NCBI GenBank assembly: GCA_964647515.1
Contig: CAZYHI010000001.1
Coordinates: 1 to 58,860, forward strand
Reading direction: 5' to 3'
Source: an uncultured Micavibrio sp.
GTDB lineage: Bacteria; Pseudomonadota; Alphaproteobacteria; Micavibrionales; Micavibrionaceae
DNA length: 58,860 nucleotides
In this document: positions 2,023-50,268 of the stretch, one piece after another
Position numbering within the stretch: the first letter of the stretch is position 1
How the letters are laid out: each line of letters opens with the position of its first letter
Notes under the pieces: model-generated
The model's database searches: none
Told to the model about the DNA's origin: nothing
What the model saw: the letters and a program-made list of their open reading frames with translations, nothing else
Position numbers and translations under genes: made by a program

Positions 2023-4686
2023 TTAAGCAGCCAAGTCGCGCAGAACATAATGTAAAATACCGCCGTGGCGGTAATAATCCACCTCGTCCAATGTATCAAT
2101 ACGAGACATCAGTGCGACTTCTTCGCTTGAACCATCGGCACGTGTGATTGTCATACTGACATCTTGTTGTGGCTTCATATCACCAGCGATGCCAGAGATA
2201 TCAAAAGTTTCAGAGCCATCAAGGTTTAAACTCTCACGGGTTACGCCATCTTTAAAGACGAGCGGTAGAACGCCCATCCCCACTAAATTTGATCTATGAA
2301 TACGCTCAAAACTTTCAGCAACCACAGCTTTCACACCCAACAACCTTGTTCCCTTCGCCGCCCAATCACGCGAAGAGCCCGTACCATATTCTTTACCCGC
2401 AATCACAACCAACGGCGTGCCAGCCTCTTGATATTTCATTGACGCATCATAGATACTCATCTGCTCATCATCAGGAATATATTTTGTGTACCCCCCTTCA
2501 ACATTATCGAGCATAAGATTTTTAATACGGATATTACCGAATGTTCCGCGCATCATCACTTCATGATTTCCACGACGAGAACCGAATGAGTTAAAATCTT
2601 TCGGACCAATTTGATGAGAACTTAAATATTCCCCCGCAGGACCAGCCTTCTTAATCGCGCCAGCTGGTGAAATATGATCTGTCGTCACACTATGCCCTAA
2701 CAAAGCCAGCGCACGTGCGCCTTTAATGTCCGCGGTGTCATCGGTTGTTTTTTCCATCCCATCAAAAAATGGCGGATTTTTCACGTAAGTTGAACCAGGC
2801 GCCCAATCATAAGTTTGCCCTGCATCATCCGCGCCAATGGCTTGCCATTCTTTCGTGCCCTTGAACACATCACCATAACGTTCGGTAAACATGGCAGGTG
2901 TCAAACATTCTTCAACAGTTTTGCGAATTTCCTCATTGCTCGGCCAGATATCTTTCATGTAAACATCATTGCCTTCCGTATCCTGACCAATTGGGTCTTT
3001 ATAGAGATCAATGTTTAGCGACCCTGCTAGCGCATACGCCACAACCAATGGCGGTGATGCCAAATAGTTCGCCGTGACATGTGGGCTGATACGCCCTTCA
3101 AAATTTCTGTTTCCTGACAACACACCACAAACCGTTAAGTCATTATCCTCAATTGCTTTGGTAATCTCAGGTGATAGTGGGCCAGAATTTCCGATACAGG
3201 TCGTACAACCATAACCGACCAGATTAAAACCCAGCGCATCCAAATCATCTTGCAAGTTTGCGCGTTCAAGATACTCCGTCACCACTTGTGACCCAGGGGC
3301 GAGCGATGTTTTCACCCACGGCTTCACGCTTAAACCTTTGGCAAGCGCATTACGCGCCACCAGTCCAGCCGCCACCATCACATCGGGGTTTGATGTATTT
3401 GTACAAGAAGTAATCGCCGCAATCGCCACATTACCATCGACCATATCAAATTCTTGCCCCATGACCGCGCTCGATTTTTGGTTCGGCACATGTTTTTTGA
3501 ACGCAGGCGCAGCATCACTCAACGCAATTCTATCTTGCGGACGTTTCGGCCCCGCGATGGATGGCACAACATCCTGCAAATTCAATGACAAAGTTTTGGT
3601 GAATTCAGGCTCATGCCCCTCTTCTCTCCACATGCCTTGCTCTTTGGCGTAGGCTTCAACCAGCGCAACGCGGTCTTTATCACGTCCTGTAAATTCGAGG
3701 TATCTTATCGTCTCCGCATCAATCGGGAAGAAGCCACAAGTCGCGCCATATTCAGGTGCCATGTTGGCAATCGTCGCACGATCTGCCAGTGACAAGTTCT
3801 GCAAACCATCACCGTAAAATTCGACAAACTTACCCACCACGCCCAGCTCGCGCAGCATTTCAACAACAACCAGAACCAAGTCCGTCGCTGTTGCGCCTTC
3901 TTTTAATTGACCTTCAAGTTTAAAGCCCACCACTTCGGGAATTAACATGGAGACAGGCTGACCCAGCATCGCTGCTTCGGCTTCAATACCACCAACGCCC
4001 CAACCCAAAATACCAAGACCGTTAATCATTGTCGTGTGTGAGTCCGTCCCCACTAAAGTATCAGGATACGCAACATCACTGCCGTTTTGGTCTTTTTCCA
4101 TCCAAACAGTTTGGCCCAGATATTCTAGATTCACTTGGTGACAAATCCCCGTTCCCGGTGGCACAACGCGAAAATTATCAAACGCATCTTGTCCCCATTT
4201 TAAAAACTCATAACGTTCGCCATTACGTTCAAATTCACGTTCAACATTGGCACTAAAGGCACGCTCGGTTCCAAACTCATCGACCATCACAGAATGGTCA
4301 ATGACTAGATCTACCGCGCTTAACGGGTTAATTTTTTGCACATCACCGCCAAGGTTTTTAATCGCCTCACGCATCGCCGCCAAATCAACCACGGCAGGCA
4401 CACCTGTAAAATCTTGCAACAGAACACGCGCAGGACGATAGGCTATTTCCTTGGTTGAGCTTTTTGTATCCAGCCAATCTGCCACCGCTTGGACATCATC
4501 AGTTGTGACAGAACGTCCATCTTCATAACGCAATAAGTTTTCTAACAAGACTTTAAGGCTAAACGGCAGTTTAGAAATATCACCGATTTTCTCCGCCGCC
4601 GCTTTCAGGGAAAAATAATCATATGATTTTCCATTCACTTCCAGTGTTTTACGTGTGCCTAAAGTGTCTTGTCCTGTTTGTGTCAT
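2023..4686 (-). CDS. acnA: aconitate hydratase A
   Basis: 887 aa with the Fe-S cluster ligand motifs [18 protein letters not shown] and [10 protein letters not shown]. Length and N-terminus ([22 protein letters not shown]) are typical of AcnA/IRP-type aconitases. Confidence 0.97.
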
Positions 4687-37722: not shown

Positions 37723-38115
37723 TTAAAAATGCCCATCCAAAGCAATAAAGATAAAGCAAATATAGGCTAAATGGGTTAGATTATGTAACTCTTGATCGAC
37801 ACCAAACCACCACCAAAAAGATGTATCTTTTGGCGTTAAATTTTTTACCAATGTAATGTGCCCTTTAACGCGGTCAATAAAGGCATGAACAACAAAATCC
37901 ACGACAGCCAACCACCACAAATGCGGCGCAAAAACCAACATCACCAAAAGCGTTCCAGTCGCATGGATAACCGTATGCACAAAAAGAGCTCTATAGCCTT
38001 CTTTTCCTGCTTTTCCCTTTGTTAAAGCCATCCAATCTGTTTGTAATAAAAAATCACAAGCAAAATGTTTTGCGCGAAAGGATAAATATAACAATAAAAG
38101 AAGGGTCGGAGACAT
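37723..38115 (-). CDS. DUF3307 family membrane protein
   Basis: The C-terminal 130 aa of the 282-aa track ORF (start ATG 38115) carry KHFACDFLLQTDWMA, then a His-rich TM region (VHTVIHATG, VVHAFIDRVKGH) typical of DUF3307. The upstream 150 codons look non-coding. Confidence 0.6.
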   Translation of the reverse strand: MSPTLLLLLYLSFRAKHFACDFLLQTDWMALTKGKAGKEGYRALFVHTVIHATGTLLVMLVFAPHLWWLAVVDFVVHAFIDRVKGHITLVKNLTPKDTSFWWWFGVDQELHNLTHLAYICFIFIALDGHF

Positions 38116-38266
38116 TAAATAGGTTTCTTTATAGAGAAGTTGTAAAGATAAGTATGACACATGCGGTATATATTCCAAGTAAAATTCAATACAAAAACGC
38201 CAAATTAGCAAATCTTTGCCCTGTACTCGTATAATAATACAAGGCATTATGTTTGTAGGGGAAAAA

Positions 38267-39478
38267 ATGAATACAATAACACAAGAAATAAACAAAAAAG
38301 AAATCAAAGCGGGTGACACCATCCTCAAGCAAGGAGATGAGGGTAGCAACGCTTTTATTATTGAATCTGGTTCAGTTGAAATCTTAATTGAAAAAGAAAA
38401 TAATCTTGTCCAAAGCATCGGTACCAGAGGGCCTGGTACAATTATTGGTGAGATGGCTCTCGTTGACAACAACCCGCGAACCGCGACGATTAAAGCAACA
38501 CAAGACAGTGTTTTACTTGAAATCACAAAAGATGATTTTGAGCGCCGCTTAGGAAATTCTGATCCTGTCATTCAGATGGTGACACAAGTTATCCTCGCGC
38601 GCTATCGCGATATCATCACCCGTGCACAAATTTTGGGCACCCAGAACACCACATCAACACCAGAAGAATTAGAAAAAGGCTTGGTTGAAAAAACGAATGC
38701 CGTTGCAAATATTAAACTCTCTAACGAATTAAAAAATGCATTAGACAACGATGAACTTGAACTTCATTACCAACCCATCATTGATTTAAAAACAAAGAAA
38801 ATAAATGGGTTTGAAGCTCTTATTCGTTGGAAACACCATGAAAAAGGTTATATTTCTCCTGAAATTTTTATTCCTTTAGCCGAAGATAATGGGCAGATAT
38901 TAGATATTAGCCGCTGGGTTGTATCACAAGCCTGTAAAACATTAAGTAAGATCAAAGATACGTTTAATGACAACGACTTTTTCATGAGCGTCAATTTTTC
39001 TGCCAGCGATTTTGCCAACGCGGATTTTAAATCATACGTCAATTACGCGCTCAATGAATCAAATATAAAACCGCATGAAATTCATCTTGAAATTACTGAA
39101 CGCTTACTAATGGGAAATCCAAGTAGTGCCCGCGACACAATAGAAGCCTGTCGCAAAGATGGTATGCTCATATCCATTGATGACTTTGGTACAGGTTACA
39201 GTTCTTTAAGTTACCTCCACCACTTTCCCATCGATATCTTAAAAATTGACCAAAGCTTCATTAACAATATGATTGATGATCAAAGTGCTTTAGAACTCGT
39301 AAAATCTATCATCGCATTAAGTCATAACATGGGCATGAAAATTATCGCCGAAGGGATAGAGACAGAAGAACAATCTCAAATATTGGAAAATCTGAATTGT
39401 GACCAAGCCCAAGGTTATCTTTATGCACGCCCCATGACAGAAGATAACTTAACCATGTTCATTCAACAACAAAACTAA
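38267..39478 (+). CDS. cyclic-nucleotide-binding domain / EAL domain phosphodiesterase
   Basis: The ATG at 38267 has an RBS AGGGGA. The cNMP-binding motifs are FIIESGSVEI and GEMALVDNNPRTATIKA. The EAL motifs are QPIIDL, EALIRW, DDFGTGYSSLSYL and AEGIETEEQ. Confidence 0.88.
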   Translation: MNTITQEINKKEIKAGDTILKQGDEGSNAFIIESGSVEILIEKENNLVQSIGTRGPGTIIGEMALVDNNPRTATIKATQDSVLLEITKDDFERRLGNSDPVIQMVTQVILARYRDIITRAQILGTQNTTSTPEELEKGLVEKTNAVANIKLSNELKNALDNDELELHYQPIIDLKTKKINGFEALIRWKHHEKGYISPEIFIPLAEDNGQILDISRWVVSQACKTLSKIKDTFNDNDFFMSVNFSASDFANADFKSYVNYALNESNIKPHEIHLEITERLLMGNPSSARDTIEACRKDGMLISIDDFGTGYSSLSYLHHFPIDILKIDQSFINNMIDDQSALELVKSIIALSHNMGMKIIAEGIETEEQSQILENLNCDQAQGYLYARPMTEDNLTMFIQQQN

Positions 39479-39584: not shown

Positions 39585-42500
39585 ATGGCTTACAATTCAG
39601 ACACGGGTTCTGCAACGCAGGATAACGGTACAACCAATATAAATTTAACACAAAATAAAGATGGTAACTTTGAGTTACCTTCTGGTTATGTCGTTAGCAA
39701 TGCTGAATTTTACCGTGATGGTCAGGATTTGACGTTAAAGTTCACTGATCAAAATGATATTTCTATCGAAAATTACTTCACAAACCAAGATGACCCTTTA
39801 ATCCAAGATGATGCTGGAAATAGCGCAAATAACGGTCTGATCAATTCATTCCTTCAATCTTCTCCTGAATATGCACAAACCTCTTCACTCACGGATGAAA
39901 GCCCTATTGGTGCCGTCGAAGAAATAAAAGGTGAAGCCACACTAATTCGTGCCGATGGTAACGTTGAAGACGTAACCTTAGGAACGCCTGTTTATCAAGG
40001 CGATGTTATTCAAACGTCTGGTGATGGTGCCTTAAATATTACCTTTATCGATGAAACAAGTTTAGCCATTAGTGAGAATGCTAAAGTGGCTCTCGATAAT
40101 TATAAATTTGATGCTAAAACAGAAAGTGGTGAGACAGATATTTCTGTTTTACGTGGTGTTTTTGTTTATACCAGCGGTCTTATTGGGCGCGATGATCCCG
40201 ACGACGTTAAAATTGATACACCTGTTGGCTCCATCGGTATTCGCGGAACAATCATTGCGGGTAACATCAACCCTAATGGTCAGAGTGAAATATCAGTTCT
40301 TGAAGGGGCTATTGTTATTACCAATGGCGTTAGCGAGAGAACATTATCTCAACAATTCGAAACCATTCAATTAACTGGGTTTAACAATGCTATTGAATAT
40401 AAAGGTGTTGAAGCCGCAGATAACATTAGTAAAACATACGGATCAGTTAATGATGTTTTACCAAAATTATTCAGCTCTATTAATGACGCAACCAAAGAAG
40501 AGGTCATTGAAGAAGAAGTCGAGGCTTCTGAAGAAAACAATGACATCGAAAGTAACGAACAAGAAACCTTAGAACTTGATTCAACATTAGACACGCAAGA
40601 TATTATAGAACTTGAAATCGGTGAAACAGGCGAGGCAACCGCTATAGAAACATCGACAGATAGTAATGTTACAACAGAACAAACATCGTTAAATTCAGGT
40701 CTTCAGGAGAGTGATTTAAATCGTACCACGATAGACGATCCTGCCTTTCAAGAATTCTTAGACCGTCCAGTTGAAACTAGGACTGAAACTGAAACGACGA
40801 CACCTCCGCCACCGCCACCAGCTGTACCAAGCGCAACGATTGATATATTTGACAGTAGTGGAAATTTACTTTTTGAAGGGAATAAATTTGATGTTAAAGT
40901 TGGTAAAATTGTTCTCTCAAATGTTCCTACCGCTGATTTAGGATCGGTAATGATCTCTGATAATAATAATATTTTTAGCTATAATCAAGACATGGCAAAC
41001 CAAAATGAATTTACTATAACTGTTGATGACGAAGCCGCAGCGCGCGTACCTTCAAATAATATAATTACTATTACAATTGGTGGTGCTAGTGCGGAAACAA
41101 TTAACCTGCCTCTTGATATATTAGATGCCGCAGTGCATTTGAATACACCAGGAGGGTTTGATTATGATGTGAGTTCTGCAACAGCTTTACAAGAACACCT
41201 GCTTAATGCACAAGATTTTGATGGCGATGGTGACAGAGATTATCTTACCATTACAAGCACAATCAATCCAAATACAAATCAAGAGGTAAATGTTTTTGAT
41301 CAAAGTAATTTAACAGGCCTCATACAAGAAACAAACCCAGGTGGTAGAAAATGGAATGATGCTGAATTCTTCGGAGATATCAATAATGATGGTTTTGCCG
41401 ATATTGTTGGTATAACAGATGACCTAGCATCAGATTATAGTATCATCATGGGGAATAACACCCCTCAAAATCCTATTCATTTAGATTTTTTAACCCCACT
41501 CACAATAGGACCAACATCTGTTGCCTCTGCTGGCGACTTTAATGCAGGTGGTAAATCTGATTTTGTTTTAGGCGCAGCGAGTGAAAATAGTGGACAAGGA
41601 CGTGTAATCATCCAATATGGCCCAAGTAATGCAGGTTTTATTGTCAATGGAACAGCTTCAGACACAGCCTTTGGTAGCCAAGTCTTTAACCTTGGTGATG
41701 TCAATGGTGATGGCGTCACAGATGTACTGGCTACAGGACAAGATGAAGCTTATGTGATTTTTGGTCGAGAAAATAATTCTGGAATCTACGAAACATTGGA
41801 TACAACTGATTTACAAAATTCGATTCAAGGGCTTGAGATTGGGGAAGGAGTCCCCCATAATTTTGTAACTGCAGGGAGCACAGGAGACATTAACGGTGAT
41901 GGCTTTGATGACTTTGCTGTTTCTTTTGATGATGGTACAGATATAAATACTTATGTTGTTTACGGAGAAAATGGTATAGAATTTCCTTCTGATTTAGATT
42001 TAAATTACTTAGAAAATCCTGATAACGCACTAAAAATCAATCACGATGGGGCAACAGGTCAAAACTATCAAATTACTGCACTGGGTGATGTTGATGGCGA
42101 CGGATTTGATGATATCCAACTTGGCATTGAAGGCGGTAAACAGTATACCGTTCATGGTGCTCCTGGCGGTAGTGCTCATGTGATTGTTACTGATCAATCC
42201 GACAATGATGATAATATGAATGCAGGTATTATAAGCGCATCGGGTGACCTCCAATCTCTCGTTGGCAATGTTAACTTTGACGACTCAGATAAAACAGGCA
42301 TTCGTATAAGTGGCGGTGATGGAGATAACATCATCAATATAAGCAACGATGATTTCGCAAAAATAGATGGCGGTGATGGATTTGATAGAATAAATATTGT
42401 AACACAAAATGGAAATCTCGATTTCACAAACTTACAGTATGAACAGGTTGAAAATATAGAACAAATCAACTTTGGTAATACTGGCCAAACAGTAACATTA

Positions 42501-42773
42501 GACGCAATTAGTATTTTCAATTTATTAAAACAAAGTGACAATAATGACTTAAGAATCTCTGGTGATTTAGGAGACACCTTAAACATTACAGATGCTAGTG
42601 GCGGCACTACAGGGGACCTAAAGGATAGAATTGTGGATATTCTAAATAGTGAGGGAGAAGGCGCTACTCACGAAACAAACACAACATTAGATGGAAATGA
42701 GTACAACCACTTCAAAATTGGGGGATATGACCTTTACATCGATACAGATATTACAACAGCAGTCGTCGTCTAG
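39585..42773 (+). CDS. large FecR-domain / FG-GAP repeat protein with RTX-like C-terminus (putative type I secretion substrate)
   Basis: 1062 aa with no signal peptide. The FecR-like segment is GEATLIRADGNVEDVTLGTPVYQGDVIQTSGDGALNITFIDETSLAI. An acidic low-complexity and PPPPPP linker follows. There are six DxDxDG-type FG-GAP calcium motifs (e.g. DFDGDGDRDY, DINGDGFDDF). GGDGDNII and GGDGFDRI are RTX-like nonapeptides, and the C-terminus is hydrophobic (..DTDITTAVVV). Confidence 0.85.
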   Translation: MAYNSDTGSATQDNGTTNINLTQNKDGNFELPSGYVVSNAEFYRDGQDLTLKFTDQNDISIENYFTNQDDPLIQDDAGNSANNGLINSFLQSSPEYAQTSSLTDESPIGAVEEIKGEATLIRADGNVEDVTLGTPVYQGDVIQTSGDGALNITFIDETSLAISENAKVALDNYKFDAKTESGETDISVLRGVFVYTSGLIGRDDPDDVKIDTPVGSIGIRGTIIAGNINPNGQSEISVLEGAIVITNGVSERTLSQQFETIQLTGFNNAIEYKGVEAADNISKTYGSVNDVLPKLFSSINDATKEEVIEEEVEASEENNDIESNEQETLELDSTLDTQDIIELEIGETGEATAIETSTDSNVTTEQTSLNSGLQESDLNRTTIDDPAFQEFLDRPVETRTETETTTPPPPPPAVPSATIDIFDSSGNLLFEGNKFDVKVGKIVLSNVPTADLGSVMISDNNNIFSYNQDMANQNEFTITVDDEAAARVPSNNIITITIGGASAETINLPLDILDAAVHLNTPGGFDYDVSSATALQEHLLNAQDFDGDGDRDYLTITSTINPNTNQEVNVFDQSNLTGLIQETNPGGRKWNDAEFFGDINNDGFADIVGITDDLASDYSIIMGNNTPQNPIHLDFLTPLTIGPTSVASAGDFNAGGKSDFVLGAASENSGQGRVIIQYGPSNAGFIVNGTASDTAFGSQVFNLGDVNGDGVTDVLATGQDEAYVIFGRENNSGIYETLDTTDLQNSIQGLEIGEGVPHNFVTAGSTGDINGDGFDDFAVSFDDGTDINTYVVYGENGIEFPSDLDLNYLENPDNALKINHDGATGQNYQITALGDVDGDGFDDIQLGIEGGKQYTVHGAPGGSAHVIVTDQSDNDDNMNAGIISASGDLQSLVGNVNFDDSDKTGIRISGGDGDNIINISNDDFAKIDGGDGFDRINIVTQNGNLDFTNLQYEQVENIEQINFGNTGQTVTLDAISIFNLLKQSDNNDLRISGDLGDTLNITDASGGTTGDLKDRIVDILNSEGEGATHETNTTLDGNEYNHFKIGGYDLYIDTDITTAVVV

Positions 42774-42777
42774 TTGA

Positions 42778-45018
42778 CTACTTGCTCTTGGCAACGAAAA
42801 CCCCGTCCCAATTTTCTGGTGGCGGGTTTTTTGTAAGTTCAATAATACGTTCACTATAAATTTTATAATATTTTTTCATGGAATCTAAGGCCAAATCCGA
42901 TGCCTCTTTACAATCTTGTGCCGCACAGGACAAATCCGCAATACGGTATGCGGCCAACATTCCGTTATGTGCCGCTTGCCATTTTTTAAATGCATCACTA
43001 CACGCATAATCAGCATCACCTACCAACGTATAAACACGCACCGCTTCATCGCGCCCAATAACCTTAATTAAATCAAGTTCCAACATCGCCAAATCATCAA
43101 CTTGTTTTTTGGTATCTTCACCAATCAAAATATCAACACCATAAGATTTTGTCTGCCCTTCTAAACGTGATGCCAAATTCACAGCATCACCCAAGGCAGA
43201 ATAAGCGAAACGTTGTTTTGATCCCATATTACCAACAGAACAAGGCCCTGTATTAACCCCTATTCCCGCTTGAAGATTAAGAGAACTCTTGTCTTTTTCT
43301 TTCATCTTATCATTCACGTTAACAAGGGCTTCATTCATCTTTAACGCCGCCAAACACGCTTGGCGCGCATGATCCGGATCATCAAGAGGCGCATTCCAAA
43401 ATGCCATCATCGCATCGCCCATATATTTATCAATCGTACCACGTGAATTCATCACAATGTCTGACATTGGTGTTAAAAAATCATTCATCAACTGAATCAA
43501 TTCTTCGGGTGATAAATTTTCTGATATCTTTGTAAAGCTTCTAATATCACTAAACATAACGGTGAGATCACGCACCTCCCCACCTAGCTTCAACTTATCA
43601 GGACTATTCGTCAGTTCTTCCATAAATTCTGGCGAGATATAATGACCGAAGGCTGTTTTGACTTGCCGTCTATCCGCTTCTGACCGTAAATAACTGAGCA
43701 AAGATGACACAACAAATAAAAAGAAAATCACAACACTTGGATATGTTGGATCAAATAATAACCCTTTTTCCACATAAGCAAAAAAGGCCGAATAATAGAG
43801 TCCACCAATGCTCATCACACTAAATATGCTTAACCAAATCACATTAATAAAAGGTGCCAATAATATAATAATCAAACCACTAACAAGGATAATTAATGCC
43901 TCTACCCCATTGGTAAAAGAAGGGCGTGTTAAAAATTTATTTTGCAAAATTTGTTCGACGACATTCACATGTACTTCAACACCAGGTTCAAAAATACTTA
44001 ATGGCGTTGAACGAATATCTCGAAGCCCGACGGCGCTTGTTCCAACAAAAACTATTTTATCTTTGATTTTATTTTCAATATTTGTGTTTTTTAAAACATC
44101 AACAGCCTTAATATATTCATCGTTTTTGATATCACGGTAATGAACCCAAAACTTCAAATCAGCATTGACAGGGATTTCTGTTTTTCCCAACTTGGTATAA
44201 TAATCAGTATCAAATAATCCCTTATTCTTATCTTTGCGTTCTTTAATACTATACCGCGCATTGGGGGACAGAGACACCCGCCATGCCTCTAACCCCAACA
44301 TCGGGTAAAGCTTGGTTTGATCAGGTGCTTCAGTGTAACGAGGGTACGCATTAAATAGTGAGACCTCACGAATAATACCATCGACATGCGGCGTCGCAAT
44401 GAAGCTTCCATTTCCTGCCGCGCTTGATGATAATATTTCTAAATTGGTGGCTAACCCAGCCGGTGAATATGGCGCGCGCAATAAGGGTTTTTTATTTTTA
44501 AAAAATAAAGTTGGTGCATTTTTTCGATAAGGTAAACGTCTCGTTTCTTCTGGGCGTGCCGCTGCAAAACCCGTCACTACATTTCCTGCTGCTTTAATAG
44601 AGTTCGCAAAAATCTTATCATTATCGGGCAAGCTTAGGATATTTTCCTTTGCTTGGGTAAATACATCATCTTCAGGCAGATATTCAACAATTTGTTGTGG
44701 GCTTGTTCTGTCTTCTTCGGCAAAAACCATATCGAAAGCAATCGCTTTGGCACCCATTTCATTTAATCTCTCCACAATTTCCGCCATCACCGTACGCGAC
44801 CATGGCCATTGTCCAATTTCTTTTAAGGATATTTCATCAACATCGATAATGGCAATGTCATCTGTCGCAGGACGTTCATGAAAACGGTTAAACACATCAA
44901 ATGTCAAATATTGTATCCGTTTTCGAAATTCATGATTTGAATCACTAAACCATACGGCAAAACCCAATATAAAAAGCAGAAAAATAATATGAAATTTTTT
45001 GTTCGTTAAAAAGCGCAT
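42778..45018 (-). CDS. CHASE2 sensor domain-containing class III adenylate/guanylate cyclase
   Basis: 746 aa. It has an N-terminal TM segment, a large periplasmic CHASE2-like region (IDVDEISLKEIGQWPWSR) and three TM segments. The cyclase domain motifs are VMFSDIRSFT, GDAMMAFW and GDAVNLASRLE. Confidence 0.9.
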   Translation of the reverse strand: MRFLTNKKFHIIFLLFILGFAVWFSDSNHEFRKRIQYLTFDVFNRFHERPATDDIAIIDVDEISLKEIGQWPWSRTVMAEIVERLNEMGAKAIAFDMVFAEEDRTSPQQIVEYLPEDDVFTQAKENILSLPDNDKIFANSIKAAGNVVTGFAAARPEETRRLPYRKNAPTLFFKNKKPLLRAPYSPAGLATNLEILSSSAAGNGSFIATPHVDGIIREVSLFNAYPRYTEAPDQTKLYPMLGLEAWRVSLSPNARYSIKERKDKNKGLFDTDYYTKLGKTEIPVNADLKFWVHYRDIKNDEYIKAVDVLKNTNIENKIKDKIVFVGTSAVGLRDIRSTPLSIFEPGVEVHVNVVEQILQNKFLTRPSFTNGVEALIILVSGLIIILLAPFINVIWLSIFSVMSIGGLYYSAFFAYVEKGLLFDPTYPSVVIFFLFVVSSLLSYLRSEADRRQVKTAFGHYISPEFMEELTNSPDKLKLGGEVRDLTVMFSDIRSFTKISENLSPEELIQLMNDFLTPMSDIVMNSRGTIDKYMGDAMMAFWNAPLDDPDHARQACLAALKMNEALVNVNDKMKEKDKSSLNLQAGIGVNTGPCSVGNMGSKQRFAYSALGDAVNLASRLEGQTKSYGVDILIGEDTKKQVDDLAMLELDLIKVIGRDEAVRVYTLVGDADYACSDAFKKWQAAHNGMLAAYRIADLSCAAQDCKEASDLALDSMKKYYKIYSERIIELTKNPPPENWDGVFVAKSK

Positions 45019-45026
45019 AACGGCAT

Positions 45027-46334
45027 TTATCTTTCTGTTAACGCCTTGTCCTTGGCGCGTAAGACAGGTTTTGCTAAATAACTTAAAATGGTTCTATCCC
45101 CTGTAATAATTTCAACTTCGGCAACCATACCGGGTGTAATCGGTAATGGATTTTCTTTTGTTCCTAAATAATTTTGATCCGCGCGAAGTTCAATTTCAAA
45201 AAATATATTGCCATCATTATCATTCACGCTATTGGCACCAATACGCACCAATGCTCCTTTTAACGATCCATAACGCTGTGAGTCATAAGCCGATATTTTA
45301 ATATTAGCCTCTTGATCGGGGCGTAAAAAGGCAATCTCTTGTGGCGTCACGCGGGCAATTATTTTTAAATCGTCATCCAAAGGAACAACCTCAACTAATT
45401 TCATGGCCGGTTCAATCACACCGCCAATCGTTTTAATCGCAATTTTATTCACCACACCATCCACAGGTGATTTTATTTCGGCGCGGTCAACCCGTTCCCC
45501 AATAGCCGTTAAGTTCTCACTTAATTGCGATATCTGACTTTCAATATCATTAAGCTCCCCTAAAACCTGACTTTTAAACTTATCTTCACGGTCGGCGCGT
45601 TCACGCTGCGCCCCTCTTAAATCAGCTTCAAGGCCGCTCTTTTTTTGCCCTGCTTCACGAATTTGTCCTGCAATATTTGAAATCTCGCGATTAAGGCGAA
45701 TTTCTTCAATTTGCGGCACAGCCTTTTGCGCCACCATTCTTTTTGTAATCGTCAGTTCTTGATTAAGTGATTTACGACTATCAGCAAATCTATTGATTTT
45801 GGCTTGCGCCTCTCTTATACCGGCACGTGCGCTTGAAATTTTATTATCTAAAATAGACTTCGCATTGCTTAACTCTTGCTGACGCGATTGATACAACGCT
45901 TGCTCATTACGGGCAATATCAGGGAACTTATCCGCCACCTCTTTAGGAACGGTAAATGTTTTACCCGCGGCCTCGGCGTCCAATCTTGCCTTCTTGGCTT
46001 TCAATGCCAATGTTCGTGCCTCAGTTCCGCGCTCTTCGGACGCAAAAGCAACATCATTGACCTTTAATAATATCTGTCCTTTTTTAACCTGCTGACCTTC
46101 ACGAACCAAAAGCTCGGTTAAAATACCGCCTTCTAAGCTTTGCACCACTTGAATTTCTTGCGTTGGGACAACCTGCCCACTGCCATGGGTAATCTCTTCT
46201 ATTTCCGATGTTCCTGCCCAAATAAAAAAGGCAAGAACCAGCGAGACAATCGTCAACAACATAAAATGCGAAGCCGTTGACGGCTTCATCCGTGTCGCGG
46301 CTTCCAATTCATTCATAAATTCTTTATCAGGCAT
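45027..46334 (-). CDS. HlyD family type I secretion periplasmic adaptor
   Basis: 435 aa with an N-terminal TM segment, a long coiled coil, and a C-terminal beta-barrel ending in ITGDRTILSYLAKPV, typical of HlyD/LssD adaptors. Confidence 0.9.
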   Translation of the reverse strand: MPDKEFMNELEAATRMKPSTASHFMLLTIVSLVLAFFIWAGTSEIEEITHGSGQVVPTQEIQVVQSLEGGILTELLVREGQQVKKGQILLKVNDVAFASEERGTEARTLALKAKKARLDAEAAGKTFTVPKEVADKFPDIARNEQALYQSRQQELSNAKSILDNKISSARAGIREAQAKINRFADSRKSLNQELTITKRMVAQKAVPQIEEIRLNREISNIAGQIREAGQKKSGLEADLRGAQRERADREDKFKSQVLGELNDIESQISQLSENLTAIGERVDRAEIKSPVDGVVNKIAIKTIGGVIEPAMKLVEVVPLDDDLKIIARVTPQEIAFLRPDQEANIKISAYDSQRYGSLKGALVRIGANSVNDNDGNIFFEIELRADQNYLGTKENPLPITPGMVAEVEIITGDRTILSYLAKPVLRAKDKALTER

Positions 46335-46340
46335 GTCTTA

Positions 46341-48506
46341 TCAATCTTTCGGAACTTGTATCTTACCTTGATTAATTTTTTCAATCACCATATCACGTTC
46401 ACCATCCATGATGATGCGCCCTTGATCCATTAAAATCAAACGATCCACCATAGTTAACAGATGATGACGATGTGTAATCAAAATAAGCGTCTTCTCTTTT
46501 GTTTGTTGTTGAATGTGATGCACAAAGGAATTTTCAGCCTGCGTATCCATCGCATTTGTCGGTTCATCACAAATATATAAGTTAGGTTTCAACAACATCG
46601 CACGCGCCAAAGCCACACATTGTCTTTGACCACCGCTTAAGCCTTCACCTCTCTCACCGACGGGCGCATCATATCCCATGGGGTGTTGTGCAATGAAATC
46701 ATGCACACCTGCAGCCGTTGAAGCTTCCAAAATATCTTCCTCGCTCGCATGGGGGACACTGACAATAATATTATCACGCACCGTACCATTAAACAGCACG
46801 ACATCTTGCGCGATATAGGCCATGTTACGACGTAAATCCGCTGGATCAATCTGACGGTAATCCGTTTTATCTAACAAAATCGTTCCGTCCGTTGGTGCAT
46901 AAAGCCCCATCGCTAAGCGCGACAATGTACTTTTACCAGAACCTATACGTCCGATAATACCAACCTTCTCCCCTGCTTCAATAGAAAAGCTAACATCTTC
47001 TAAAACCTTACGGTCTGTCTTAGGGTAAACGAAAGACGCCTTTCTAAAGGTTAAATTTCCTTTTAAATCGGGGCGATGTAAAAATTGTTTTTCGGCAGGT
47101 CGTTCAATTGGTTTAGACATTATATTGTTCAATGTTTTTAACGCCGTGCGCGCACTGTGATAACGACTCATTAAATTCGCCATTTGGCCTATCGGTGCAA
47201 TAGCGCGTCCACTCAAAAGGACACAAGCAATGAGCGCGCCAACGCTCATCGTTGAATCTTTAACCAAATACATTCCAATAAGAACGACAAAAATAGTGGC
47301 GCTTTGTTGAACCCAGCTTGATATATTCACACCTAAACCAGACACAAATCTTGATTTTTGTGAGTATTTCGAATTTTCAGCGATGTAACGACCATATCGT
47401 TCACGCATACGACCATCGGCACCCACAGCCTTAATCGTTTCTAAACCATGGATCGTTTCAATCAAAAGACCATGTTTGGCTTCCGATGATTTTGTTGATT
47501 TTTTCACCAAGGATTTCAAAGGAAATTGTAACAACACACCGGCAATAAAAACCAAGATAATAAGCCCCGCCAACACAAAGGCAATCGGCCCACCCAACAT
47601 CCAAATCACAAATAAAAATAAGAATGTAAATGGTAAATCAATAATTGTCGTCAATGTCGCCGATGTAATAAAATCACGCACAGAATCAAAATCACGCAGC
47701 ATACTCGCAAATGATCCACTGGAATTTGGCCGTTCTTCCAACTTCATATTCAATAGCTGATCATAAATGCGTCGCCCTGCAATAACATCAACGCGCCGTC
47801 CTGCAAGGTCAATAAAATACCCCCGTAAGTTTTTTAAAATAAAATCAAAAACAAAAACCGTTAAGGCTCCAAGACCTAAAACCCATCCCGTTTCAATGGC
47901 GTTATTCGGAATAACACGGTTATATATGTTCATAATAAATATAGGGCTGGTAAGGGCAAAAATATTAATAAAAATAGCTGCCACAGCCACGCGTAAATAA
48001 ATAGATTTACAATCCAGCATCGGCCCCCAAAACCAATGATCTTTGTAATCATCATTTTTGGACAATGTTTTTTCTTCAAATTCAGGTTTAGGATGAATAT
48101 AAATGGCATAACCGCTATAGGAAGATTTTAAATCTTTAAATGATACAGAACGCTCACTCTCCGTTTCTGGTGACCAAATAATCGCGCTTTGTTCGTTTTT
48201 GTTTATTTTTAGCAACACACAAGCTTGCTCATTATCCAGCACTAAAACAACAGGTAAAACAGCCGAAGGGATTTTGTTAATATTGGCACGTTTTATAATT
48301 TTTGTTTTTAAATTAATACGCTCCGCCGCCTCACAAAACAAAGAAGGTTTCATATGATCTTGCGCATAGGCCAGACCAGAAACAAGGGCTTGAGATGATT
48401 TAGCACGTCCATAATGCGTCGTTAAAAAAACAAGGCATTCTAATAAAGGATCAATCTTTGATTTTGTCTTTAATTCTAGCTTGGTTTCTAATTCAGGCAA
48501 ATTCAA
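46341..48506 (-). CDS. type I secretion system permease/ATPase with N-terminal C39-like domain (LssB-like)
   Basis: 721 aa. The N-terminal DPLLECLVFLTTHYG is a C39-like domain. Six TM segments follow. Walker A is GRIGSGKST, the signature is LSGGQRQ, and Walker B is LYICDEPT. Confidence 0.92.
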   Translation of the reverse strand: MNLPELETKLELKTKSKIDPLLECLVFLTTHYGRAKSSQALVSGLAYAQDHMKPSLFCEAAERINLKTKIIKRANINKIPSAVLPVVLVLDNEQACVLLKINKNEQSAIIWSPETESERSVSFKDLKSSYSGYAIYIHPKPEFEEKTLSKNDDYKDHWFWGPMLDCKSIYLRVAVAAIFINIFALTSPIFIMNIYNRVIPNNAIETGWVLGLGALTVFVFDFILKNLRGYFIDLAGRRVDVIAGRRIYDQLLNMKLEERPNSSGSFASMLRDFDSVRDFITSATLTTIIDLPFTFLFLFVIWMLGGPIAFVLAGLIILVFIAGVLLQFPLKSLVKKSTKSSEAKHGLLIETIHGLETIKAVGADGRMRERYGRYIAENSKYSQKSRFVSGLGVNISSWVQQSATIFVVLIGMYLVKDSTMSVGALIACVLLSGRAIAPIGQMANLMSRYHSARTALKTLNNIMSKPIERPAEKQFLHRPDLKGNLTFRKASFVYPKTDRKVLEDVSFSIEAGEKVGIIGRIGSGKSTLSRLAMGLYAPTDGTILLDKTDYRQIDPADLRRNMAYIAQDVVLFNGTVRDNIIVSVPHASEEDILEASTAAGVHDFIAQHPMGYDAPVGERGEGLSGGQRQCVALARAMLLKPNLYICDEPTNAMDTQAENSFVHHIQQQTKEKTLILITHRHHLLTMVDRLILMDQGRIIMDGERDMVIEKINQGKIQVPKD

Positions 48507-48518
48507 CCCCTTACGAGT

Positions 48519-50087
48519 TTATTGTGTTGTAATATAAACGCGCTCACTGGATGCCGATGAATGAAGCCTTGGCTTATATAACTGAGGTTCTACAACAGGT
48601 ATTGCTGGCTCGATAATCTTTTCTGGCACTCTTTCTTCAAAAGCAGGTTGAATAATCGGCACTCTTGGTTCAAACGATTTACGAACAGGGATAGGCGCAC
48701 TTAATTTAATTTTTTCAACAGGTTTTGTTCTTACAATAGGTTGAGGAACATCTGCAGCGGAGTGAACAGAAGAAGTATTTAATTGAACATCGCCAATCAC
48801 TCTATTTTGCAACTGCCCCATACTGGCTAAAATATTATATTTAGCAAATAAAGTGCGGTAATTTGCCCCAATAGATTCTAATTGCGCATTAAAGAGTTGA
48901 TTTTCCGCCTGCATTAATTGCAACAAACGAACACGCGCCCCTTCAAATTGAATTTTATACGCATCCGATAATTCACGCGTCACTGTTTCTCTCTTTTCAA
49001 CCAAGGCAACTTGCTTTTGCGCCGTTTCCAGCTCGCTATACGCCCGCTGAATGTCACCTTCAATAGTACGCAACTGTTCTTTATTCTGCGCCGCTATTTC
49101 AGCATACTGCGCTTTAGATCTATTCACGCGTGCCTTAGAAGCACCACCAGTTTCAAAATCCCAATTCATCCTTACAAGCGCACGCGCATCTTCTAATTTG
49201 CCACCAATAACCTCTCGTTGTTCGCGTTTAATACCCGATAATTCGGCATCAACACTTGGTAAAATATCCGCTTTTTCAACTTTTACATCATAGGCAATCG
49301 CTTCCATCTCTTTTGCATTAGACTTTAGAAGCGGGTGATTTTCTCTTGCATAAGAAAATGCAGCAGACGGTGTTCCAACAAGATTAGACACATCACGCGG
49401 TTCAACAAGAGCCGTTCTTGGGCGATGACCTATAATTTCTTTATAATTGGCGCGTGCGGTTTCCAACTGCCCTTCATAATCAACTAAAGAACTTTGAAGC
49501 ATTAAACCAATATTGCGCGCCTGCGCCGCTTCTGATTCATCTGCGGCTCCTTCATTCACCATAAGCTCAATACGTTGCAAATAATTTTCAATAGAGGCCA
49601 AATAAGACTTTGTTTTATTTAATGTTGCTTGCGCCTGTAAAACCCCAATATGTGCTTGCGTTGCCCGCAAAGCCAAATTCTCACGCACATCTAAAACATT
49701 GTAATCCGCAGACTCTATACGTGCATGAGCCGCTCCAACTCTATTTTTGATCTGCCCACCACCATAAAGAGGTTGCGTTAAGCTCGCACTGACTTCAAAC
49801 AAGCCTGAAGAAGCTGAATCCCTTGTGACGGACAAGCCACGGCTAACACTATTATTTGCAAAAAGACCACCAACTGACGTTTCCGCCGATAATGTTGGAA
49901 ATAAATCAGATTTTGCTTCTCGGCGTGTGGCACTGGCCGCATCACGCCCTCTTAGTGCCGCCTCAACACTAGGGTGCGTTTCCAACGCCTTAAGCACGGA
50001 TTCCTTCAATGTCTCTGATGAAGCGCTTTGACACACGCCAAAAGACAATATTGTCGTACAACTATAGAGAAGGATTTTTTTATACAT
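48519..50087 (-). CDS. TolC family outer membrane channel with Pro-rich C-terminal extension
   Basis: 522 aa with a signal peptide and two TolC-type repeat halves (LKESVLKALETHPSVEAA, typical of T1SS TolC). There is a ~90-aa extra C-terminal tail rich in Pro/Val/Glu. Confidence 0.88.
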   Translation of the reverse strand: MYKKILLYSCTTILSFGVCQSASSETLKESVLKALETHPSVEAALRGRDAASATRREAKSDLFPTLSAETSVGGLFANNSVSRGLSVTRDSASSGLFEVSASLTQPLYGGGQIKNRVGAAHARIESADYNVLDVRENLALRATQAHIGVLQAQATLNKTKSYLASIENYLQRIELMVNEGAADESEAAQARNIGLMLQSSLVDYEGQLETARANYKEIIGHRPRTALVEPRDVSNLVGTPSAAFSYARENHPLLKSNAKEMEAIAYDVKVEKADILPSVDAELSGIKREQREVIGGKLEDARALVRMNWDFETGGASKARVNRSKAQYAEIAAQNKEQLRTIEGDIQRAYSELETAQKQVALVEKRETVTRELSDAYKIQFEGARVRLLQLMQAENQLFNAQLESIGANYRTLFAKYNILASMGQLQNRVIGDVQLNTSSVHSAADVPQPIVRTKPVEKIKLSAPIPVRKSFEPRVPIIQPAFEERVPEKIIEPAIPVVEPQLYKPRLHSSASSERVYITTQ

Positions 50088-50268
50088 ATATTAGAGGCCT
50101 TACTAAATGAACACCCAAAAAGTGCAAAAAGAACATTCGCACAGTTACAAATTTTACATCTCTATTGGTTTTTTAGCAAGTATTTGCACATATTATGTGT
50201 CATTTTCACCATTAACGGCTAAAAATAGGTTAACATTAACTCATAATTTGAAAAGACAGCCCTGATAT

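Follow-up and report, generated by a model that had tools for sequence, protein, structure and literature searches.

In Lap-type systems (LapA/LapBCE/LapD/LapG of Pseudomonas fluorescens, MpIBP of Marinomonas primoryensis, DvhA of Desulfovibrio), a large adhesin is exported by a dedicated type I secretion system (T1SS), and its retention module stays periplasmic and holds the adhesin in a TolC-like channel (PMC13090378). Another described arrangement pairs a CHASE2 receptor gene with a gene for a FecR-domain protein, the receptor being a cyclase in Campylobacterota (PMC9239204) and a histidine kinase in Burkholderia (PMC5192318). In Sinorhizobium meliloti, the CHASE2 cyclases CyaK/CyaD1/D2 need the outer-membrane protein NsrA and respond to external plant-derived signals (PMC7529298), and the FecR-domain protein SMc02177 is a target of the cyclic AMP (cAMP) regulator Clr (PMC7529298, PMC5498481). 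In the predator Bdellovibrio bacteriovorus, Bd1971 is a cAMP-activated cyclic di-GMP (c-di-GMP) phosphodiesterase, for which a Micavibrio aeruginosavorus homologue is listed (PMC6717892); the cAMP source is not named in that paper, where a text search finds neither 'operon' nor 'CHASE2'. Here we describe a locus within 58,860 nucleotides (nt) of DNA from an uncultured Micavibrio sp. (GenBank assembly GCA_964647515.1, contig CAZYHI010000001.1, positions 1 to 58,860 of the forward strand; hereafter the window), in which a T1SS operon ends in the gene for a CHASE2 cyclase and faces the gene for the probable T1SS cargo, a protein of 1062 amino acids (aa) with a FecR-like domain.

The locus resembles the Lap-type systems in its dedicated T1SS with a C39-like ATP-binding cassette (ABC) exporter, in its link to c-di-GMP, and in its large cargo, which lacks a signal peptide, carries few RTX repeats and has an N-terminal beta-sandwich matching MpIBP (5ix9). 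Unlike them, it has no adjacent LapD or LapG gene and no di-alanine motif; its operon-encoded periplasmic partner is a CHASE2 adenylate cyclase, and the link to c-di-GMP is predicted to run through a cAMP-activated EAL enzyme. Moreover, its retention-like fold extends to a full FecR-like domain and follows an extra domain of ~80 aa. The locus does not appear to belong to the Lap family: its cargo shows no conserved LapG cleavage site, and neither LapD nor LapG is encoded next to it. Nor is it a FecR anti-sigma system: the cargo domain has its periplasmic fold in common with the FecR/PupR regulators (6ovk, 4m0n; Foldseek E 4.5e-6 to 1e-4), whose periplasmic domain contacts an outer-membrane partner protein, but the cargo has neither a transmembrane (TM) segment nor a cytoplasmic anti-sigma domain, and no extracytoplasmic function (ECF) sigma factor or TonB-dependent transducer is encoded nearby.

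As in the CHASE2/FecR pairs (CHASE2 cyclase-phosphodiesterase-FecR-TPR of Campylobacterota, BiofilmReg of Burkholderia and NsrA-CyaK/CyaD1/D2-Clr of S. meliloti), a receptor is encoded beside a FecR envelope protein, and cAMP, the output of the cyclase examples, is also the output predicted here. Elsewhere, however, the partner is a small FecR protein with a Sec signal, whereas here a T1SS cargo of 1062 aa without a signal peptide carries the FecR domain at its N-terminus, the cyclase gene is the last of a T1SS operon, and the predicted cAMP receptor is an EAL phosphodiesterase rather than a Crp-like protein. This enzyme has the same two-domain architecture as Bd1971, the cyclase gene of the locus being 3.3 kb away and co-inherited. 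The ABC exporter shares its NCBIfam subfamily (TIGR03375) with that of the Legionella LssB/LssD-RtxA system, for which no cyclase is described in the literature consulted and whose cargo is unrelated, except that it too is large and of RTX type. Literature searches found no paper joining 'CHASE2' with 'type I secretion', and none linking 'retention module' with FecR.

The reading favoured here, to which we assign a probability of about 0.5, is that a T1SS-anchored adhesin presents its FecR domain in the periplasm, where the CHASE2 cyclase reads it, and that the resulting cAMP activates a Bd1971-type phosphodiesterase.

Organisation of the locus and its products

The locus comprised six genes, with those for a cyclic nucleotide monophosphate (cNMP)-binding EAL protein and the FecR/FG-GAP protein on the plus strand facing those for the cyclase, HlyD, ABC and TolC on the minus strand (Table 1). 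The four minus-strand genes lay head to tail with intergenic gaps of 12, 6 and 8 nt, no terminator was found between them, and only 4 nt (42774-42777) separated the stop of the cyclase gene from that of the convergent 1062-aa open reading frame (ORF). Gene coordinates and gaps in the initial annotation agreed exactly with the ORF table, the 4-nt spacing was confirmed, and family scans returned the same domains (TolC, C39-like ABC, HlyD, CHASE2-cyclase). Its statement that the convergent stops leave no room for a terminator overlooked a terminator-like hairpin with a U-run, which falls within the 3'-terminal codons of the cyclase gene, on the opposite strand, and could end the convergent cargo-gene transcript. 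The promoter-like site upstream of tolC was the sole match within the 181-nt gap preceding the operon, in a scan whose yield was near background (49 sites vs 36.6 +/- 7.3 expected from shuffles) and which speaks neither for nor against an internal cyclase promoter. The four genes probably act as one unit, with co-transcription of T1SS and cyclase. The co-expression proposed in the initial annotation is consistent with the tight spacing, the lack of an intergenic terminator, the kept gene order and co-regulation in published RNA-seq of M. aeruginosavorus ARL-13; no sign was found of unlinked expression from a separate cyclase promoter, of an unconserved arrangement or of a catalytically dead cyclase.

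The cyclase consisted of an N-terminal TM segment, a periplasmic CHASE2 domain, three TM segments, the catalytic domain and a conserved C-terminal tail of ~90 aa, with hydrophobic segments at aa 10-24 and 370-445 enclosing CHASE2 ahead of the catalytic domain. The motifs listed in the initial annotation (VMFSDIRSFT, GDAMMAFW and GDAVNLASRLE) were present in the translation. Six catalytic residues were invariant in an alignment of 15 orthologues (45-74% identity): D491 and D535 (metal-binding), K531 (substrate-specifying), S607 (second specificity), and N614 and R618 (transition-state). The closest solved structures were Synechocystis Cya2, its engineered derivative IlaC, Pseudomonas aeruginosa CyaB and Spirulina CyaC. 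K531 aligned with a Glu of Cya2 (2w01), which we take to be a guanylate cyclase, and with a Lys of IlaC (6fht), an adenylate cyclase according to its depositors; the specificity pair was K/S here versus E/G in Cya2. With its six catalytic residues kept, the enzyme is read as catalytically intact and, because K531 matches the IlaC Lys, against the Cya2 Glu, as being of adenylate type, with cAMP as its predicted product, and a guanylate cyclase was rejected since the specificity residue is Lys and not Glu. The synthesis of an unspecified cyclic nucleotide proposed initially therefore stands as regards an intact enzyme and is narrowed to predicted cAMP as regards the product.

The 1062-aa protein had no signal peptide, a hydrophilic N-terminus and no TM segment. 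Its domains comprised, in order, an N-terminal beta domain (aa 20-97), the FecR/retention-like domain (aa 106-280), a helix, an acidic Pro-rich linker and an integrin-alpha-like FG-GAP propeller (about aa 540-850) with six DxDxDG-type motifs; the C-terminus was hydrophobic (...DTDITTAVVV), and two degenerate RTX nonapeptides (GGxGxD-like) were present. The family profile matched integrin alpha-V propellers (E 5e-27, profile search of the PDB with the full-length alignment). The same architecture was shared by 616 database homologues, all unnamed or called 'FG-GAP repeat protein', and the best-conserved part was the N-terminal ~300 aa. The protein is probably the cargo of the adjoining T1SS, exported C-terminus first, as judged from this architecture.

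The full-length profile search was swamped by integrin propellers, and MpIBP was placed using the N-terminal 330 aa alone. The AlphaFold2 (AF2) model of residues 1-330 (pLDDT 84.8, pTM 0.79) matched, in Foldseek searches against the PDB, the C-terminal periplasmic signalling domain of PupR (6ovk, E 4.5e-6), the related anti-sigma factor 4m0n, and the 'cell surface anchoring domain' of Marinomonas MpIBP (5ix9; TM-score 0.81, root-mean-square deviation 0.8 A over 64 columns). At the sequence level, cargo aa 106-177 aligned with 5ix9 residues 13-84 (E 7e-4). No conserved LapG site ([T/A/P]AAG) followed the retention-like domain, either in the cargo protein or in a 39-sequence consensus. The search for LapD (LapD_MoxY_N, PF16448) gave no match and is uninformative, as the control genomes were equally silent. 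Two tandem LapG-like BTLCP (Peptidase_C93) genes lay unlinked to the locus on contig C105 (L110:2108-3061 and 3232-3906), with no LapD-like gene beside them.

Immediately upstream of the cargo gene and on the same strand lay the cNMP-EAL gene, which the initial annotation had not connected to the operon and whose link to the cyclase is added here. Its product matched Bd1971 (6hq5) over the full length (261 bits, residues 32-408) and kept the EAL, DDFGTG and EGIE motifs as well as the PRTA phosphate-binding cassette with its Arg; by analogy, it is likely the cAMP receptor of the locus. In the window genome, which is 89% complete, one Guanylate_cyc, one CHASE2 and one FecR domain were detected, all in the locus, together with two cNMP-binding domains, that of the EAL protein and that of a stand-alone 125-aa ORF. 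The latter (contig C31, L121:1633-2010, minus strand) had the cassette HYGAT instead of R[ST]A, without the phosphate-binding Arg, and may be unable to bind cyclic nucleotides. On the opposite strand, a 282-aa 'DUF3307' ORF (37723-38571, minus) overlapped the first ~300 nt of the cNMP-EAL gene; its Pfam match covered only residues 168-269, and because its N-terminal conservation in relatives coincides with the cNMP-binding coding sequence, the true DUF3307 gene is probably ~130 aa long and non-overlapping.

The assignment of the three secretion components to a T1SS follows from a C39-like ABC exporter scoring above its family cut-off (693 bits for TIGR03375), with a HlyD adaptor and a TolC-family channel encoded alongside. 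The closest solved structure to the exporter was HlyB (7sgr, 338 bits); its Peptidase_C39 match was weak, and the position of the C39 dyad His was occupied by Tyr. HlyB-type exporters with a C39-like domain are the type that handles large RTX proteins. A bacteriocin-type, peptide-cleaving exporter was rejected, as the best family was LssB, the closest structure HlyB and the C39 His absent. The TolC protein carried a Sec-type signal peptide and scored 196 bits against TIGR01844, under the cut-off of 225. Its C-terminus formed a ~90-aa Pro/Val/Glu-rich extension past the second OEP repeat (48519-48794, minus strand); this tail was variable, and matches in several relatives ended near residue 430-445. 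A second LssB-type ABC exporter of ~800 aa (45% identical; C11:22360-24495, minus strand) was encoded elsewhere in the window genome.

Table 1. Features of the locus, with positions in the 58,860-nt window
Feature	Position (nt)	Strand	Evidence
CHASE2 receptor adenylate cyclase (predicted)	42778..45018	minus	CHASE2 181 bits, Guanylate_cyc 83 bits
CHASE2 domain, periplasmic (predicted)	43867-44958	minus	PF05226 181 bits
Class III catalytic domain	43045-43572	minus	PF00211 83 bits
HlyD-family T1SS periplasmic adaptor	45027..46334	minus	TIGR01843 372 bits, cut-off 209
LssB/HlyB-type T1SS ABC exporter, C39-like domain non-catalytic	46341..48506	minus	TIGR03375 900 bits
TolC-family outer-membrane channel	48519..50087	minus	Pfam OEP 162 bits
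Probable T1SS cargo, 1062 aa, FecR + FG-GAP	39585..42773	plus	Domain scans, motifs
FecR-like / RTX-adhesin retention-type domain, aa 106-280	39900..40424	plus	AF2 model, Foldseek, sequence match
cNMP-binding + EAL gene, Bd1971 type	38267..39478	plus	Pfam cNMP_binding 77 bits, EAL 250 bits
cNMP domain	38297-38548	plus	Pfam
EAL domain	about 38723-39433	plus	Pfam
Promoter-like site TTGCTA-17-TAAAAT, upstream of tolC	50151..50179	minus	Consensus promoter scan, weak
Terminator-like hairpin + U-run (candidate)	42794..42834	plus	-25.3 kcal/mol, z = -3.6

Distribution within and beyond the Micavibrionales

Among 41 related genomes, which owing to their kinship are not independent samples and for which no statistics are given, the cyclase was found in 18 and a module-type LssB (at least 48% identity) in 17-18, tracking the cyclase. 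The FecR cargo (17/41) and the full-length cNMP-EAL protein (16-17/41) occurred in largely the same genomes as the cyclase. Fifteen relatives, with cyclase identities of 45-74%, carried the six-gene block at one and the same site, and it was arranged alike in 15 further loci from metagenome-assembled genomes (MAGs). Wherever the contig was long enough, gene order was the same, with the block between mreB/DUF3307 and lysophospholipase/ligA, and its G+C content matched the surroundings. Because order and site are conserved in relatives, the adjacency is more than chance, and co-inheritance of T1SS and cyclase is well supported by these comparisons.

Two genomes lacking the module (G018 and G007) kept a C-terminal remnant of the cyclase, of 85 aa or 21 aa (L122:9458-9706 and L123:8911-8973), between the lysophospholipase gene and mreB, with the remaining ~3.5 kb also at the site; since a 3' fragment of the cyclase gene remains at the same position, the block looks to have once been present and then deleted. 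Another genome (G034) had the EAL gene without the cyclase. In G010 (L017:5140-13689), the module-type ABC gene had five in-frame stops, the HlyD match was fragmented and the cargo gene had one stop, while the cyclase and EAL genes read through intact, a pattern due either to decaying secretion genes in the module or to errors of assembly. The second LssB paralogue (~44% identity) was present in all 41 related genomes; it presumably represents the order's core T1SS, separate from the system linked to the cyclase.

A neighbourhood survey of CHASE2 cyclases, suggested in the initial annotation, showed that the T1SS adjacency, conserved in the 15 relatives and 15 MAG loci mentioned above, extends to a sister clade. 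It covered the 80 best cyclase loci in species-representative genomes. In ~20 of them, a T1SS was lacking and the cyclase had as its neighbour a gene for a FecR protein that was 270-600 aa long and bore a Sec signal peptide. In ~15 others, including Terasakiella brassicae, genes for ABC, HlyD and TolC flanked the cyclase in a different arrangement. One sister-clade locus (L062) encoded, next to TolC, cyclase, ABC and HlyD, a 979-aa FecR + DUF4114 + RTX protein that lacked a signal peptide. Five genomes had a T1SS-linked cyclase without a FecR gene in its vicinity, and in four of them several very large FecR-domain ORFs were encoded elsewhere. Giant open frames with a FecR/retention domain, from 833 to 5949 aa, were seen at L111, L115, L119 (T. 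brassicae, G041), L112, L113, L116, L117 and L120; RTX adhesins of Alphaproteobacteria may thus commonly carry the FecR/retention-type domain as their N-terminal module.

A midpoint-rooted maximum-likelihood tree of 81 CHASE2 cyclases separated into two halves (SH-aLRT 94). The 31 T1SS-linked cyclases all fell in one half (37 rows), divided between two clades, both with a support of 100; of the six remaining rows in this half, three were on short or truncated contigs. The other half (44 rows) contained no T1SS-linked cyclase and all 20 with a partner having a Sec signal and a FecR domain. T1SS-type FecR partners carried an extra N-terminal domain compared to the Sec-type partners. Because the tree splits in this way, the T1SS link is old, lineage-defining and parallel to the ordinary CHASE2-FecR pairing.

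Expression in Micavibrio aeruginosavorus ARL-13

The same block was present in the cultured type strain M. aeruginosavorus ARL-13 (GMV_1870-1877), for which a gene expression index in the attack and attachment phases is available from published RNA-seq (PMC3189940, additional file 4); adenylate cyclase is never mentioned in the text of that genome paper (PMC3189940). The four operon homologues had values of about 0 in the attack phase and of 4.1, 1.3, 1.0 and 0.8 in the attachment phase, being thus switched off and on together, with the decrease from gene to gene that a single transcript would give; the last two of these were HlyD (GMV_1875; attack 0.1, attachment 1.0) and the CHASE2 domain (GMV_1874; 0.1 and 0.8). 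The cyclase catalytic domain, annotated separately (GMV_1873), had values of 3.2 and 0.5, respectively, and its attack-phase value may stem from transcription running on from the convergent gene, which is strongly expressed and encodes the FG-GAP repeat protein (GMV_1872; 66.1 and 19). The genes for MreB (GMV_1867; 0 and 12.4) and ribosomal protein L36 (GMV_1868; 0 and 8.5) were detected in the attachment phase only.

Proposed circuit and alternative explanations

In the circuit envisaged, TolC, the LssB-type ABC exporter and HlyD would export the FecR/FG-GAP protein C-terminus first. Its N-terminal FecR-like domain, unable to pass TolC, would stay periplasmic, and the integrin-like propeller would be displayed on the cell surface; the retention-type fold offers a possible route for placing the FecR-like domain of a T1SS cargo beside the periplasmic CHASE2. 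The latter would bind or monitor the FecR domain, a contact proposed because FecR proteins exported by Sec are the partners of CHASE2 sensors in other systems. We infer this sensing of the cargo, which the initial annotation had already raised as a possibility, from the general pairing, from the retention-like domain and from the single cyclase, CHASE2 and FecR domain detected in the window genome. The cyclase, with its intact, adenylate-type catalytic residues, would make cAMP at a level that tells, by a rise or a fall, whether the anchored protein is present, has bound a ligand or has been lost, and the adjacent cNMP-EAL enzyme, by homology to Bd1971, would read cAMP and hydrolyse c-di-GMP. 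In a prey-attaching predator, such a circuit would link surface contact to a c-di-GMP-controlled lifestyle switch. A broader proposal, which we hold only tentatively and think more doubtful than not, is that CHASE2 domains are receptors for FecR-like domains and that, in this lineage, the retention domain of a T1SS-anchored adhesin is what the cyclase reads; occupancy, pulling or loss of the propeller, on prey contact for instance, would then raise cAMP and lower c-di-GMP. If true, it would set an outside-in switch beside the inside-out one of LapD/LapG and give a general answer to what CHASE2 senses.

Several observations weigh against the favoured circuit. The retention_LapA model NF033682 scored 33 bits on the stretch of the cargo that aligns with 5ix9 (aa 106-177), under its cut-off of 50, and ~100 residues precede the retention-like domain, which is located at the extreme N-terminus in LapA and MpIBP. 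The block is not indivisible, as one relative (G002) lacks the cNMP-EAL gene and in two others (G022/G023) the cargo gene has moved to a distant position, leaving T1SS, cyclase and EAL still grouped, and the lack of independence among the related genomes also counts here. In ARL-13, the cargo peaks in the attack phase while the secretion genes are at ~0; because it is highest when the exporter is near zero, the timing of the two is not simply parallel. Finally, the ARL-13 cyclase is annotated as two ORFs (GMV_1874, CHASE2, 1269 nt; GMV_1873, catalytic, 1032 nt), owing either to a frameshift or to a sequencing error.

The main rival is control from the inside out, in which CHASE2 would sense another cue, from the envelope or from outside, the cAMP-EAL-c-di-GMP cascade would control secretion, retention or release of the adhesin in a Lap-like manner, and the FecR-like domain would be merely a plug and not the ligand of the cyclase. 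We consider it unlikely, although the cargo does have a retention-type domain, two tandem LapG-like BTLCP protease genes are present on contig C105, and the predicted circuit ends in c-di-GMP hydrolysis, which is the release signal for LapA-type adhesins (PMC13090378); the S. meliloti CHASE2 cyclases, which answer external plant signals via an outer-membrane protein (PMC7529298), also fit a cue of another kind. The BTLCP genes are, however, unlinked to the locus, the retention-like domain is not followed by a conserved [T/A/P]AAG site, and LapD was not found, although that search carries no weight given its silent controls. The adjacency of CHASE2 to FecR-domain genes across many phyla (PMC9239204) would, furthermore, be left unexplained by a FecR-like plug that the cyclase does not read.

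Full release of the FecR/FG-GAP protein, as a prey-directed factor or matrix protein, with the cyclase merely co-expressed in an attachment-phase regulon, is in our view improbable. RTX-type proteins have been proposed as Micavibrio predation factors (PMC3189940), and the displaced cargo gene of G022/G023, with T1SS, cyclase and EAL still together, fits this reading, but the N-terminal 300 aa, which carry the retention-type fold and are the best-conserved part of the cargo, count against it, as do the gain or loss of cyclase, cargo and module-type T1SS together and the old lineage formed by the T1SS-linked cyclases. Chance adjacency, or a recently transferred island without functional coupling, is already disfavoured and has very little probability left: presence within the genus is patchy (14/21 genomes), yet the block keeps one chromosomal position and one gene order down to 45% identity, the empty site bears the scars of deletions, the G+C content matches the surroundings, and a rearranged T1SS-cyclase cluster occurs in another alphaproteobacterial clade.

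Little is known about the ligand of the widespread sensor domain CHASE2, for which a recurrent, co-inherited FecR partner delivered by a T1SS is a concrete candidate. The locus likewise offers a candidate cAMP source for the Bd1971 family, which has been studied in another predator. As the T1SS-linked CHASE2 cyclases form an old lineage across Alphaproteobacteria, the idea reaches beyond one genome, and the presence of the module in the cultured ARL-13 makes a role in prey attachment open to testing. A single co-inherited block, comprising an exporter, a probable surface cargo, a cyclase and a cAMP-controlled EAL enzyme, suggests a route from a surface protein to the cell interior.

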